Part shown: piece by piece, positions 21,523 to 58,667 of the stretch
How the letters are laid out: every line of letters begins with the position of its first letter
How positions within the stretch are numbered: position 1 is the first letter of the stretch
Assembly (NCBI RefSeq): GCF_024223415.1
Contig: NZ_CP100500.1
DNA length: 64,000 bases
Direction: 5' to 3' (one strand)
Source: Escherichia coli
GTDB lineage: Bacteria > Pseudomonadota > Gammaproteobacteria > Enterobacterales > Enterobacteriaceae
Program-made: the position numbers and the translations under genes
The notes under the pieces: model-generated
What the model was told of the DNA's origin: nothing
The model's input: the letters and a program-made list of their open reading frames with translations, nothing else
The model's database searches: none

Positions 21523-23073
21523 TTATACCGTAAACCCTAACATCATCCCCGTATCTTCATGCTCCAGCAGATGGCAGTGCGCCATATAAGCATGTTCTTT
21601 CGGTGCGTCGTGATTAAACTTCACCAGCACTTCACTGACATTGCCTTCTACCTTAACGGTATCTTTCCAGCCCGCGCGATGAGCCGCTGGCGGTTTGCCA
21701 TTTTCTGACAAGATACGGAACTGCGTGCCGTGAATATGGAACGGATGCAGCATCATGTCGCCCACGCCAGAGATAACCCAACGTTCGTACTGCCCTTTCG
21801 CCGCCGCAAACATCGGCTTATTCATATCAAACGCCTGACCGTTGATTTTATTGGCATGGTGGAAATCGAACTTCCCGCCGTGGTTCATATGATTCATATT
21901 GCCGTGCCCCATATGGCCCATCATCTGGCTGTGATCCATCCCGGCCATCGCCTGATCGCCATATTTCTCCATCAGCATCTGCATACCCATCATATCGAGC
22001 ATCGGGTCCATAGAAAGTTGCTGCTTACGTACCGTCAGCCCTTCCAGCGAAGGTAACGCAGGCAGGCTACTTAATGTGTCTGGCAAAGCACCGGAAGCAC
22101 TAATAGCAATCGGCTGAATCCGCATTACCGGATGAGGCTTATCAAACGGTGCAATCGCCATCCCCATCTGGCTGACCGGCAGCGTCACCAGGTCAAAGGG
22201 TTTGTTGTCGTTAACCTCCACCAGCACTTCAAAACGCTCGCCCATCAGCACCGGCAGCTCGTTCACCTTCACCGGTTCAGGTAGCAGACCACCGTCGCTG
22301 GCAATCACATAAAGCGGGCGATTGTCGCTGGTGGCGAAATTGAGCGAGCGGGCATTACAGCCATTGAGCAAACGCAGGCGCAGCCAACCACGCGGGGCAG
22401 CGTGTTGCGGGTAGATTGCACCGTTGGTCAGCAACGTATCGCCAAACCAGCCCACGGCGGCGGTCATCACATCCAGTTGATAATCAATCTGCCCGTCGGC
22501 GCTAAATTTCTTATCCTGAACGATCACCGGAACATCATCGATACCCCACTGTTTTGGCAGCATTAATTTCAGGATCTCGTCATCTTCAATCACCACCAGA
22601 CCAGCCAGCCCCATCGCCACCTGTCGCCCGGTCTTGCCATGTTGATGTGGATGGAACCAGCAGGTAGCGGCAGGTTGATCAACGTTCAACGTCACCGAGC
22701 GCTTGCCACCTGGCGGAATAATTCCCTGTGGGCCGCCGTCGACTTCACCCGGTACTTCCAGCCCGTGCCAGTGCAACGTCGTCTCTTCCGTCAGTTGGTT
22801 ATAGATATCAACCGTTACCGCTTTGCCGCGCTGTAATTTCACCGCCGGCCCCAGCAGATTGCCGTTATAGCCCCAGGTAGTTGCAGTTTTCTCGCCAAAG
22901 GTAGACTGACCTGCGCCAATAGTTAACTGAATGCGATTACGGGCATCGGTCGTGAGCAAATCAGGGATCGGTAACGTTGGGCGTTCCGCCGCAAAGACTG
23001 CACGGCTCCACAGTGGCAAGGCTGAAGCCACACCCAGTGCGACGGAATATTTCAAGAAATCACGACGTTGCAT
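21523..23073 (-). CDS. cueO: multicopper oxidase (cuprous oxidase), Tat-exported
   Basis: 516 aa from [28 protein letters not shown] (twin-arginine signal); copper-binding HxH motifs; methionine-rich insert ([46 protein letters not shown]). Confidence 0.9.
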
Positions 23074-23118
23074 AGTTATTTCCTTATTTTTAAGCAGGCG
23101 AAACAAAATCAAACGTTG

Positions 23119-23149
23119 AGCATAGTCCTTCCCCTTACGGGAAGGTCAA
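23119..23149 (-). promoter_or_regulatory. CueR/MerR-type promoter of cueO (-35 TTGACC, 19 bp spacer containing dyad, -10 TATGCT)
   Basis: minus-strand reading cTTGACCttcccgtaaggggaaggacTATGCT; spacer is 19 bp and contains dyad CCTTCCC-N5-GGGAAGG, the hallmark of MerR-family activated promoters. Confidence 0.6.
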
Positions 23150-23238
23150 GCCGCAGACACAATTTAATCGACAATAATGGTCGTCGCCTCGCTCGCAGTG
23201 TGCTAACGTTTATCTTCTTTAAGCCCCTGGTAGAAGCA

Positions 23239-23586
23239 ATGAAGACGTTTTTCAGAACAGTGTTATTCGGCAGCCTGATGGCCGTTTGCGCAAACAGTTA
23301 CGCGCTCAGCGAGTCTGAAGCCGAAGATATGGCCGATTTAACGGCAGTTTTTGTCTTTCTGAAGAACGATTGTGGTTACCAGAACTTACCTAACGGGCAA
23401 ATTCGTCGCGCACTGGTCTTTTTCGCCCAGCAAAACCAGTGGGATCTCAGTAACTACGACACCTTCGACATGAAAGCCCTCGGTGAAGACAGCTACCGCG
23501 ATCTCAGCGGCATTGGCATTCCCGTCGCTAAAAAATGCAAAGCCCTGGCCCGCGATTCCTTAAGCCTGCTTGCCTACGTCAAATAA
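23239..23586 (+). CDS. yacC: uncharacterized periplasmic protein YacC (PulS/OutS-like)
   Basis: 115 aa from MKTFFRTVLFGSLMAVCANSYA (signal peptide); position between cueO and speE. Confidence 0.7.
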   Translation: MKTFFRTVLFGSLMAVCANSYALSESEAEDMADLTAVFVFLKNDCGYQNLPNGQIRRALVFFAQQNQWDLSNYDTFDMKALGEDSYRDLSGIGIPVAKKCKALARDSLSLLAYVK

Positions 23587-23691
23587 TCCCTGATACCTTT
23601 TTGTAGAAATATTGACCGTGCATCCGCGGTCAATGTTAGCTATTATGTTGCGCCCTTTTTTTACGGGTGTTAACAAAGGAGGTATCAACCC

Positions 23692-24558
23692 ATGGCCGAA
23701 AAAAAACAGTGGCATGAAACGCTACACGACCAGTTTGGGCAGTACTTTGCGGTAGATAACGTTCTGTATCATGAAAAGACCGATCACCAGGATCTGATCA
23801 TTTTTGAGAACGCTGCATTTGGTCGCGTAATGGCGCTGGATGGCGTAGTACAAACCACCGAGCGCGACGAGTTTATCTATCATGAGATGATGACCCATGT
23901 TCCGCTACTGGCCCACGGTCACGCGAAACATGTGCTGATTATCGGCGGCGGCGACGGTGCCATGCTGCGTGAAGTAACCCGACATAAAAACGTTGAGTCA
24001 ATCACGATGGTGGAAATCGATGCGGGTGTCGTATCGTTCTGCCGTCAGTATCTACCCAACCATAACGCCGGTAGCTACGACGATCCGCGCTTTAAGCTGG
24101 TGATCGACGATGGCGTCAATTTCGTTAATCAAACCAGCCAGACCTTTGATGTCATTATCTCCGACTGCACCGATCCTATCGGTCCCGGCGAAAGCCTTTT
24201 CACTTCGGCATTTTATGAAGGCTGCAAACGTTGCCTGAATCCTGGCGGTATCTTCGTCGCACAAAACGGCGTCTGCTTTTTACAGCAGGAAGAAGCCATC
24301 GACAGCCATCGCAAACTCAGCCATTACTTCAGCGACGTTGGCTTTTATCAGGCGGCGATCCCGACCTATTACGGCGGTATCATGACTTTTGCATGGGCGA
24401 CAGATAACGACGCCTTACGCCATCTCTCAACCGAAATTATTCAGGCGCGTTTTCTCGCCTCTGGCCTGAAATGCCGTTATTACAATCCGGCAGTCCATAC
24501 GGCAGCTTTTGCCTTACCCCAGTATCTGCAAGACGCACTGGCTTCACAGCCGTCCTAA
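23692..24558 (+). CDS. speE: spermidine synthase
   Basis: 288 aa [19 protein letters not shown]...; AAGGAGG RBS; aminopropyltransferase motifs (IIGGGDG). Confidence 0.95.
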
Positions 24559-50889: not shown

Positions 50890-51206
<317 letters not shown>

Positions 51207-51230
<24 letters not shown>

Positions 51231-51605: not shown

Positions 51606-51664
51606 TGTCTTAAACCTATAAAAAAGGCGCAGAATCCTGCGCCTTTTACTTCAACTGTTAGCTT

Positions 51665-54370
51665 TTATTGCAGGCGACCATGGCACTGCTTGTATTTTTT
51701 ACCAGAACCGCACGGGCAAGGATCGTTACGTCCTACTTTGCGCTCACCGGTTTGCGCCGCCAGTGCAGCTGCGGCTGCAGAGTCGTCATCCTGATGGCTA
51801 AGCTGCTGCATTTGCGCTAAACGCTCGGCTTCCATACGACGCTGTTGTTCCAGCTCCTCAACCTCTTCAGGCATACGTACCTGAACTTTGCTCAGCGTGC
51901 TGATAACTTCATATTTCAACGACTCCAGCATCGCTGCAAACATGGAGAACGATTCACGTTTGTATTCCTGCTTCGGATCTTTCTGTGCGTAGCCACGCAG
52001 GTGGATACCCTGACGCAGATAGTCCATCGCTGCCAGGTGCTCTTTCCACAGGGAGTCAAGCGTTTGCAGCATGACGCCTTTCTCGAAGTGACGCATCATC
52101 TCTGCACCAACCACTTCTTCTTTACGCTGATACACTTCGATGGACTGCGCCAGAATGCGCTCACGCAGCGTCTCTTCATGCAGTTCTGGTTCTTTATCCA
52201 GCCACTCAGCAATTGGTAAATCGAGGTCGAAATCGTTCTTCAGACGTTCCTGCAGCCCCGTAATATCCCACATTTCTTCCAGCGACTGTGGCGGAATGTA
52301 GGCATCAATGGTGGCTTTGAACACATCTTCACGAATGCTGTTAATGGTTTCGCTCACATCGCTGACATCCAGCAGTTCGTTACGCTGGGAGTAAATGGCG
52401 CGACGCTGATCGTTAGCCACGTCATCATATTCCAGCAGTTGCTTACGAATGTCGAAGTTACGGCTTTCAACTTTACGCTGGGCGTTAGCAATCGCTTTGG
52501 TCACCCACGGGTGTTCAATGGCTTCGCCTGGCTTCATACCCAGTTTACGCATCATGCCGGATACTCGGTCAGAAGCAAAAATACGCATCAGCGCATCTTC
52601 CATCGACAGGTAGAAACGGGAAGAACCAGCATCCCCCTGACGACCAGAACGACCGCGCAACTGGTTATCGATACGACGGGATTCGTGACGCTCGGTACCG
52701 ATGATATGCAGGCCACCTGCTGCCAGTACCGCATCGTGACGTACCTGCCAGTCGGCTTTAATTTTTTCAATTTGCTCTGCGGTCGGATTTTCCAGCGCGG
52801 CAACTTCTGCCTGCCAGCTACCACCGAGCACAATATCTGTACCACGACCCGCCATGTTGGTCGCGATAGTCACCGCAGCCGGATAACCTGCCTGAGCAAC
52901 AATCGCCGCTTCGTTGGCGTGGAATTTGGCGTTCAGGACATTGTGCTTAATACCGGCTTTGGTCAGTTCGTTTGACACCAGCTCCGATTTTTCGATGGAG
53001 ATAGTACCCACCAGCACCGGCTGGCCTTTCGCAGTACGTTCTTTGATATCTTCAATGATCGCCTGAATTTTTTCCGCTTCAGTCATGTAGACCAGGTCCG
53101 GCAGATCTTTACGAATCATTGGACGGTTGGTCGGAACAACGACGGTATCCAGTTTGTAGATGGAGCTAAATTCGAAAGCTTCGGTATCAGCAGTACCGGT
53201 CATCCCCGCCAGTTTTTCATACAGACGGAAGTAGTTCTGGAAGGTGATCGAAGCCAGCGTTTGGTTTTCGTTCTGGATCTGCACACCTTCTTTCGCTTCC
53301 ACAGCCTGGTGCAGACCATCGGACCAGCGACGGCCCTGCATGGTACGACCGGTGTGTTCGTCAACGATGATAACTTCACCATCTTTAACGATGTAGTCGA
53401 CGTCACGGGTAAACAGCGCATGAGCGCGCAGCGCCGCCGTTACGTGGTGCATCAGCATGATGTTGGCCGGAGAGTACAGAGACTCCCCTTCATCCATGAT
53501 GCCCTCTTTCACCAGCAGTTCTTCAATCAGGACCAGACCACGTTCGGTCAGGTTCACCTGGCGAGATTTTTCGTCCACCGAGAAGTGGCCTTCGCCCTGG
53601 AAGGTTTCGGAGTCTTCTTTTTCCTGGCGGATCAGGTGTGGAATAATTTTATTCACGCGTTTATACATTTCCGAGCTGTCTTCTGCCGGACCGGAAATGA
53701 TCAGCGGTGTACGCGCTTCATCGATCAGGATTGAGTCCACTTCGTCCACCAGCGCATAGTGCAGTTTACGCTGTACACGTTCTTCAGGGCTGAACGCCAT
53801 GTTGTCGCGCAGGTAGTCAAAGCCGTATTCGTTGTTCGTACCGTAAGTGATGTCAGCTGCGTAAGCTTCACGCTTTGCCGGTGCTGGCATGCCCGGCAGG
53901 TTGATACCGACAGTCAGGCCAAGGAATTCAAACAGCGGACGGTTGTTTTCGGCGTCACGTTGCGCCAGGTAGTCGTTGACGGTAACTACATGCACGCCTT
54001 TACCGGTTAGTGCGTTCAGGTAAGCAGGCAGCGTTGCGGTCAGGGTTTTACCTTCACCGGTACGCATTTCGGCGATGCAGCGTTCGTTAAGAACCATACC
54101 GCCGAGTAACTGAACGTCGAAGTGACGCATACCAAAGACGCGCTTACTTGCCTCACGTACCACGGCGAAAGCTTCCGGGATCAGATTTTCCAGCACTTCG
54201 CCTTTTTCCAGACGTGCACGAAATTCTGCGGTTTTCCCTTTCAGTTCTTCGTCGGAGAGTTTTTCCATCTCCGGTTCCATGGCATTGATGATGTTGACCA
54301 CTTTGCGCATCCGGCGCAGGGTGCGATCGTTACGACTACCGAAAACTTTAGTTAATAATTTGATTAGCAT
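51665..54370 (-). CDS. secA: preprotein translocase ATPase SecA
   Basis: 901 aa [38 protein letters not shown]...; C-terminal zinc-binding [14 protein letters not shown]. Confidence 0.95.
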
Positions 54371-56192: not shown

Positions 56193-57344
56193 TTAATCAG
56201 CTTGCTTACGCAGGAATGCTGGGATATCCAGATAATCCGGCTCTTTCGCAGTTTGCGGCGCATTGTCATTCACGACTTTAGCAACCGGCTTCTGCTCCTG
56301 GGTCAGCGGAGCCATCCCATGCTGCTGGTAGCGATCCATCACTGGCTGCTGAACCTGCTTATTGGTCACCAGAGTGATTTCAGGACGTTTGTCCATGCCG
56401 ATACCTGTCGCAACAACGGTTACGCGCAGCTCGTCATTCATATCCGGGTCAAGAGAAGTACCGATAACCACAGTCGCGTTGTCGGAAGCAAATGCACGGA
56501 TGGTGTTACCTACCGTTTCGAACTCATCCAGACGCAGGTCGAAGCCCGCCGTGATGTTAACCAGCACGCCGCGCGCGCCAGACAGGTCGATATCTTCCAG
56601 CAGCGGAGAAGAGATAGCCATTTCAGCAGCTTCTTCCGCACGGTCTTCACCGCTCGCCACGCCAGAACCCATCATTGCGTAGCCCATTTCAGACATTACG
56701 GTGCGTACGTCTGCAAAGTCCACGTTCATCAAACCCGGACGAGTAATCAGTTCAGCGATACCTTGCACAGCGCCTTTCAGTACATCGTTCGCTGCGCCAA
56801 ACGCATCCAGCAGGGAGATACCGCGGCCCAGAACTTTCAGCAGTTTGTCGTTCGGGATAGTGATCAGAGAGTCCACATGCTTGGACAGTTCAGTGATCCC
56901 CTGCTCGGCGAATGCCATACGCTTCTTGCCTTCAAAGTTGAAAGGCTTAGTGACGACAGCAACGGTCAGGATACCCAAATCTTTTGCCACTTCAGCGACG
57001 ACTGGTGCTGCACCTGTACCGGTACCACCACCCATACCCGCAGCAATAAAGACCATGTCTGCACCTTCCAGCGCCGCACGCAGTGCATCGCGATCCTCAT
57101 CAGCCGCATTGCGGCCAACTTCTGGATTAGCGCCAGCGCCCAATCCTTTGGTGATACCGCTACCGATTTGAATCGTCTGTCCAACCGCTGTTTTACGCAG
57201 CGCTTGTGCATCGGTATTTACCGCGAAGAATTCAACACCTTCAATGCGCTCGCGCACCATGTGTTCAACAGCATTACCGCCGCCGCCGCCGACGCCGATG
57301 ACTTTAATCACCGCGTCATTGGTAAGTTCCATTGGTTCAAACAT
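56193..57344 (-). CDS. ftsZ: cell division GTPase FtsZ
   Basis: 383 aa; tubulin signature GGGTGTG; C-terminal [14 protein letters not shown]. Confidence 0.97.
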
Positions 57345-57404
57345 AGTTTCTCTCCGATTTGTGCCTGTCGCCTGAGGCCGTAATCATCGTCGGCCTCATA
57401 AAAA

Positions 57405-58667
57405 TTAAAACTCTTTTCGCAGCCAACTATTGAGTCGCTTGATCCACGAGCCAACTGATGCTGTAACACGTTTTTCTACTTCAGCTTCACCGTTAAGATG
57501 TGACTCTTTCCCATAGTGAAGCAATCCCACCGCCGTCGAATAATACGGCTCCTGAGCATAATCCGTTAAACCGGTAATGTTCAGCGGCGCGCCGATACGC
57601 ACTTGCGTATGAAACACGCGCTGAGCACAGGCTGCAAGACCTTCGATCTGCGCTGCGCCACCAGTTAATACAATGCCTGCCGCCAGGTGATGTTTAACCC
57701 CTTGTTGGCGAAGCTTTTCCTGCAACTGCAATATCTCTTCGTTGACCAGGTTGAGCAGCTCGGTATAGCGCGGCTCGATCACCTCTGCCAGGGTCTGACG
57801 TTGCAGACTCCGCGGCGGACGACCGCCTACGCTCGGCACTTCCACGCTCTCATCTTTTCCAACGATGGAACCCAGCGCACAACCGTGGCGAACTTTAATC
57901 GCTTCGGCGTCGCTTGGCGGCGTGCCAAAGGCGTAAGCGATATCACTGGTCACGACATTGCCAGCATAAGGAATTACCTTAGTGTGGCGCAATGCCCCAC
58001 CGGTATAAACGGCGATATCCATTGTACCACCACCGATATCGACGACGCAGACACCCAGTTCACGTTCATCTTCCGTCAATACCGAATAACTTGATGCCAG
58101 ACCGGCAAATATCAGTTGGTCAACTTTCAGCCCACAACGTTCAACCGCTTTGACGATGTTTTTCGCCATATCGTTGTGACATGTGATCAGGTGCACTTTT
58201 GCCTGCATCCGCACGCCCGAAAGTCCTACCGGATTCTTGATCCCTTCCTGATAGTCAATCGCATACTCTTGCGGGATCACATGCAGCACACGATGCTCAT
58301 CGCGCACACGCACCGATTTCGCGGTATGGACGACGTTTTCCACATCTTCTTGCGTCACTTCTTCTTCAGAAATAGGCACCATACCAATTTCATTCTGGCA
58401 GCTGATGTGCTTACCAGAAAGCGCCAGATATACCGAAGAGATCTGACAATCTGCCATCAATTCTGCCTGGTCAATGGCACGTTGTACGCACTTGACCACG
58501 GATTCGAGGTCGTTCACCCCGCCTTTATCCATACCACGCGACGGGCAGCTGCCCACGCCAATGATATTGACCATACCGTCGGGCAGAACTTCCCCTACTA
58601 AAGCGGCAACCTTCGCGGTACCAATCTCCAGTCCTACTACCAGTTTTCTGTCCGTCGCCTTGATCAT
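57405..58667 (-). CDS. ftsA: cell division protein FtsA (actin-like ATPase)
   Basis: 420 aa [27 protein letters not shown]... Confidence 0.95.

Follow-up and report, generated by a model that had tools for sequence, protein, structure and literature searches.

The element upstream of cueO in the Escherichia coli sequence analysed here is almost certainly PcueO, the CueR-dependent sigma-70 promoter of the gene for the periplasmic multicopper oxidase CueO. This promoter is already known, is present unchanged and is textbook biology. A first-pass annotation of the 64-kb stretch of DNA under study (the window) had proposed a MerR-type, CueR-like promoter at this place. Its proposal is supported by the operator box, by the register of that box, by a mapped transcription start, by orthologous loci and by published ChIP-chip and reporter data, and no observation speaks against it.

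We re-read the promoter directly from the sequence. On the minus strand it is cTTGACCttcccgtaaggggaaggacTATGCTcaacg, and a longer minus-strand read of 22800-23500 includes gcggcTTGACCttcccgtaaggggaaggacTATGCTcaacgtttgattttgtttcgcctgcttaaaaataaggaaataactATGcaacgtcgtgat. The first-pass annotation had placed the element at 23119-23149 on the minus strand, and these coordinates, both hexamers and the 19-nt spacer were all found to be exact (Table 1). The arrangement TTGACC-19 nt-TATGCT stands 46 nt upstream of the cueO start codon, and the exact composite TTGACC-N19-TATGCT occurs once in the window. MerR-type promoters combine sigma-70 hexamers at a supra-optimal spacing of 19-20 bp with a palindromic operator that lies between and overlaps the hexamers; PcueO shows both features, with a spacing of 19 bp. 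Spacers of 19 bp are also found in published MerR and CueR promoters (PMC8169799, PMC9909328, PMC1526738).

Table 1. Features of the cueO promoter region and other mapped elements, in window coordinates.
Feature	Position	Strand	Details
-35 hexamer TTGACC	23144..23149	-	direct read; -36 to -31 relative to the Cappable-seq start
Spacer ttcccgtaaggggaaggac	23125..23143	-	19 nt; 2 bp over the sigma-70 optimum
-10 hexamer TATGCT	23119..23124	-	direct read
CueR operator	23127..23145		core CCTTCC-N7-GGAAGG, extended to CCTTCCC-N5-GGGAAGG; centre 23136
Operator arm CCTTCCC	23139-23145		
Operator arm GGGAAGG	23127-23133		
cueO transcription start	23113	-	U00096.2 137043 (+); Cappable-seq, relative read score 6.37 (PMC4782308)
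cueO 5' untranslated leader	23074..23112	-	40 nt counting the start; Shine-Dalgarno AAGGA 23085-23081
cueO coding sequence	21523..23073	-	516 aa; Tat signal MQRRDFLK...; gene downstream of the promoter
yacC coding sequence	23239-23586	+	divergent from cueO; YacC, NF037975, 197 bits
Rfam matches	50908-51216; 51620-51689; 37018-37131; 57336-57425	-; -; +; -	Rfam scan

A sigma-70 scan of 22900-23700, in which spacers of 16-18 nt were allowed, returned no promoter, including in the yacC-cueO intergenic region. The scan is blank at PcueO because the 19-nt spacer falls outside its rule, and this blank is not evidence of absence. There is no conventional alternative promoter for cueO in the scanned region.

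The operator was recovered by a repeat finder as an inverted repeat with arms of 7 nt, which are 100% complementary and 5 nt apart. The first-pass annotation gave the sequence of this dyad correctly but not its position, as it had described the dyad as contained in the spacer. The first two bases of the left arm (CC) are in fact the final two of the -35 hexamer, so that the operator overlaps this hexamer by 2 bp, and the operator ends 2 bp before the -10 hexamer. The CueR box at PcopA likewise overlaps the -35 hexamer (PMC8169799). All 12 core positions of the PcueO box match the published CueR core CCTTCC-N7-GGAAGG, the consensus quoted in two studies (PMC8169799, PMC1526738). There is a single copy of the exact core in the window, and 100 dinucleotide-preserving shuffles produced no copy. 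When up to two mismatches were allowed, five matches were obtained against 1.9 expected, which is not significant, so only the exact match is informative.

The first-pass annotation had suggested a comparison with the CueR box of copA, which yielded the same -35 hexamer, spacer length and box register. The K-12 copA upstream region is ttcTTGACCttccccttgctggaaggttTAACCTttatcac, in which PcopA is TTGACC-ttccccttgctggaaggtt-TAACCT. Both promoters have the -35 hexamer TTGACC, a 19-nt spacer, a CCTTCC half-site beginning at base 5 of the -35 hexamer, and a 2-bp gap between GGAAGG and the -10 hexamer. In a pairwise alignment, CTTGACCTTCCC...GGAAGG..TA..CT is in register and the flanks are unalignable. 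The two promoters differ in the -10 hexamer (TAACCT in PcopA, TATGCT in PcueO) and in the central 7 bp (CCTTGCT against CGTAAGG), and their dyads are extended in opposite directions, outward in PcopA (ACCTTCC/GGAAGGT) and inward in PcueO (CCTTCCC/GGGAAGG). The cryo-EM structure of CueR-RNAP-PcopA shows the same layout, with a 19-bp spacer, a CCTTCC-N7-GGAAGG core, a repeat overlapping the -35 hexamer and a 2-bp gap to the -10 hexamer, and PcopA was activated poorly or not at all in vitro when its box was displaced by 1 bp (PMC8169799). The register of the PcueO box is that of PcopA, as expected of a promoter in the CueR regulon.

Other MerR-family promoters, namely Tn21/Tn501 Pmer, PzntA, PsoxS and Bacillus Pbmr, likewise place a palindromic operator between -35 and -10 hexamers that are set apart by an over-long spacer of 19-20 bp, and they too are activated by kinking and under-twisting of the DNA rather than by recruitment (PMC9909328, PMC1526738). 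They differ in their operator sequences and in their effectors (Hg, Zn, redox and drugs). Because its box is an exact CueR box, PcueO lies outside the regulons to which these promoters belong. Compared with K-12 PcueO (yacK), the 31-bp promoter, the box and the flanks in the window are identical, as are gene order and orientation. The K-12 MG1655 coordinates are 137007-137012 for the -35 hexamer, 137032-137037 for the -10 hexamer and 137083 for the cueO ATG. The sole nearby difference lies outside the promoter, in the cueO leader, where K-12 has G and the window has A at 23089 (cueO strand).

The public Cappable-seq start of cueO, obtained from MG1655 in M9-glucose with a clustering cutoff of 5 (PMC4782308), agrees with this promoter and does not place the start elsewhere. 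Mapped via the K-12 sequence, it sits 6 nt past the last base of TATGCT. Plus-strand starts are listed at 137043 (score 6.37) and 137002 (1.80), and no further one before 138877 (PMC4782308). The cueO start is a T with a 5-nt discriminator, which is slightly unusual. The ±1 accuracy of its placement in the window depends on U00096.2 and NC_000913.3 having the same coordinates at 137 kb, which we take to be the case, the two versions presumably first differing near 258 kb.

The product of the downstream gene scored 981 bits against NCBIfam NF008205, 'multicopper oxidase CueO' (cutoff 525). The promoter thus serves a copper homeostasis gene, as expected of the CueR regulon and in agreement with the earlier description of cueO as an established regulon member. 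The gene order is acnB-yacL-speD-speE-yacC-cueO-gcd, according to the annotation of a 100%-identical E. coli strain. A 501-nt yacC-cueO query (22900-23400) was present in 5424 of 5426 complete E. coli genomes, and 61 nt centred on the promoter were found at ≥99% identity, that is, identical, in 5197 of those 5424. Ten of the 5442 places matched by the longer query in complete E. coli genomes, and three places matched by the 61-nt query, were on records labelled plasmid; these could be mislabelled replicons or plasmid-borne chromosomal segments. Elsewhere in the window, matches above the Rfam gathering score were three tandem naRNA4 (REP-type) copies, STnc40, tp2 and PssrA, all unrelated to PcueO.

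Published work places CueR at this promoter. ChIP-chip with tagged CueR gave exactly two chromosomal peaks, upstream of copA and cueO, and CuSO4 induces PcueO-lux (bioRxiv 10.1101/2020.08.17.251918). A review of the MerR family names copA and cueO as the targets that CueR activates and describes the kink and under-twist mechanism (PMC9909328); in reviews, induction of cueO is described as dependent on Cu(I) and on cueR. In addition, comparative genomics described a yacC-yacK(cueO) divergon with a CueR site and a promoter with a 19-nt spacer (PMC1526738). One study employs a PcueO-lacZ fusion to report on CueR and deleted the cueO promoter region from -74 to -1 as a CueR operator (PMC9396075); PcueO is treated as a CueR operator site elsewhere as well (PMC4507017). 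We take CueR binding and CueR dependence at PcueO from secondary citations and one ChIP-chip preprint. Primer extension and footprinting of cueO are reportedly to be found in Outten et al., JBC, 2000, and in Yamamoto and Ishihama, 2005. A search of the literature for input from CusR or HprR gave no report relevant to the cueO promoter.

We then examined conservation in one genome per species (GTDB), locating orthologues through a pattern of degenerate codons that encodes the N-terminal CueO sequence MQRRDFLKY, so that the search was blind to the promoter. This probe gave 89 matches, comprising 82 cueO orthologues and seven unrelated Tat-signal proteins. The orthologues came from about 14 enterobacterial genera: Escherichia, Citrobacter, Enterobacter, Kosakonia, Lelliottia, Leclercia, Buttiauxella, Superficieibacter, Silvania, Phytobacter, Franconibacter, Pseudescherichia, Pseudenterobacter and Morganella. 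An exact-box search upstream of these genes found only about 11 loci, which gave a first impression of poor conservation. That impression was discarded after a mismatch-tolerant, hexamer-anchored search, in which the architecture was kept almost everywhere: TTGAC[C/G]-19 nt-TAnnCT stood upstream of cueO in 80 of the 82 loci. One of the two exceptions, Leclercia adecarboxylata NCTC13032 (L071), has a 20-nt spacer, TTGACC-ttccggcaagggggagggtt-TATGCT, with an extra G in the G-run, which may be genuine or may have arisen from misassembly of the homopolymer. The other, L075, has 56 nt of upstream sequence only and gave no meaningful box match.

At the 12 core positions, scored in 81 loci, mismatches to the box numbered zero in 10 loci, one in 50, two in nine, three in nine and four in two; 60 of the 81 loci thus had at most one. 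Among 36 unique 31-mers, the invariant positions were TTGAC, the left half-site's TT, the GG that precedes the right half-site and the TA..CT of the -10 hexamer, and position 6 of the -35 hexamer was C in 34. When 79 unique 200-nt regions were aligned with MAFFT, their mean identity to the window was 0.84 over 23149-23119 but fell to about 0.1-0.3 in the adjoining 20-25 nt (23170-23150 upstream and 23110-23090 in the leader), so that the promoter appears as a clean phylogenetic footprint. The leader is poorly conserved save for its Shine-Dalgarno block, where identity is 0.8-0.9.

The two half-sites are not conserved equally. The -10-proximal half-site is GGAGGG, not GGAAGG, in most Enterobacter, Kosakonia, Lelliottia, Leclercia and related loci (L004-L092). 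The perfect palindrome is largely limited to Escherichia and Citrobacter, with one more exact core in Franconibacter (L072), and both arms are altered in Pseudescherichia (CCTTGCC..GGCAGGG) and Morganella. We looked at palindromic covariation of the two arms. A few cases agreed with it, such as G at position 9 together with C at position 19 in Pseudescherichia and Morganella psychrotolerans; misfits were equally numerous, and no claim is made.

These features are consistent with the following mechanism. With its hexamers 19 bp apart, PcueO holds them 2 bp too far apart and out of helical phase for sigma-70, and the promoter is expected to be weak alone because sigma-70 cannot engage both hexamers across 19 bp. 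A dimer of the MerR-family regulator CueR would bind the CCTTCC-N7-GGAAGG box that fills the spacer. The cueR gene lies outside the window, at another place on the chromosome, which in the K-12 annotation is 513,993-514,400. Bound but metal-free, CueR would hold the promoter off, in a repressed shape. With Cu(I), or with Ag(I) or Au(I), it would kink and under-twist the spacer, a distortion predicted to shorten and re-phase the -35/-10 separation to a distance of about 17 bp and so to let sigma-70 engage both hexamers. RNA polymerase would then form the open complex and begin transcription at the mapped start, yielding cueO mRNA with the 40-nt leader. This distortion mechanism was solved structurally on PcopA, where the literature describes the CueR dimer as gripping the half-sites from the face opposite RNA polymerase. 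We infer by analogy that it transfers unchanged to PcueO, since the box sequence and register are identical.

The site may also have a further role, although we consider this unlikely: the single CueR box could control the divergent yacC as well, or a start near 23154 could yield a transcript that carries a hairpin and is occluded by CueR. The weaker Cappable-seq start, 137002, corresponds to window position 23154 on the cueO strand, where it precedes the -35 hexamer by 5 nt. RNA initiated there would traverse the CueR box and so include the dyad, which could fold into a hairpin. As to yacC, its start codon is 103 bp from the dyad centre, and its upstream region has conserved blocks of its own. 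The intergenic region contains a second strongly conserved block, 23169-23243 (+), which reaches into yacC and is probably the yacC promoter and leader. Within it, GTGTGCTAACGTTTATC (23198-23214, +) resembles an extended -10 element (TGnTAACGT) for yacC, and TCGACAAT..GGTCGTCGC (23169-23187) is also kept across genera. If true, yacC control or the 23154 transcript would be a second output for a site thought to have one.

A regulator-independent sigma-70 promoter, with a coincidental dyad and with copper control of cueO located elsewhere, is very improbable as an account of this element. The start was seen in M9-glucose without added copper; basal transcription is, however, expected from the zeptomolar sensitivity of CueR (PMC8169799). 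Perfect 7-bp dyads are not rare if any sequence is allowed, and simple arithmetic predicts a few per 64-kb window at a given spacing, but the dyad found here contains the full CueR core, unique in the window and absent from the shuffles, and has the same register as that of PcopA. Also against coincidence are the fixed 19-nt spacer in orthologous loci whose flanks drift, the CueR ChIP-chip peak at cueO, and literature reports that copper induction is lost in a cueR deletion or in box mutants.

It is equally improbable that the dyad is not a protein operator but acts as a nucleic-acid hairpin, for example a terminator or a leader structure in a read-through transcript. The single-stranded dyad does fold, to -7.4 kcal/mol (z = -2.8 against shuffles), and initiation at the weak 137002 start would put it in RNA. 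It nevertheless lies upstream of the main start and is consequently absent from the main cueO mRNA, and no gene ends here, as yacC and cueO diverge. The stem is not followed by a T-run, a terminator scan does not flag the dyad, and the locus has no Rfam match. Arm changes among orthologues often break pairing (for example T opposite G, A opposite C) at a fixed spacing, which fits a protein site better. The only terminator-like match in the scan of 22900-23700, at 23490-23476, lies inside yacC and is irrelevant.

Service by ZntR, SoxR or another MerR paralogue in place of CueR has next to no likelihood: a 19-20 bp spacer with an embedded dyad is common to all MerR-family promoters, and the GGAGGG right half-site of most non-Escherichia genera means that the box is not always a perfect consensus, but the E. 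coli box equals the CueR core and the PcopA box exactly, comparative genomics assigns the site to CueR (PMC1526738), the ChIP-chip was performed with tagged CueR, and the downstream gene encodes a copper oxidase.

The CueR-dependent promoter PcueO thus leaves existing knowledge unchanged, and its value is as a control on strand, coordinates and gene identity, all of which were placed correctly, in keeping with the first-pass annotation's own description of the element as known biology and an internal check. A MerR-type promoter with a 19-bp spacer can be recognised from raw sequence, although standard -35/-10 scanners, which allow 16-18 bp, miss such promoters. What the comparison adds is a small footnote: in Enterobacterales cueO, the 19-bp spacing and the -35-proximal half-site are near-invariant, whereas outside Escherichia and Citrobacter the -10-proximal half-site is under looser constraint, and its GGAGGG form might be a lineage-specific adjustment of CueR affinity or basal repression.
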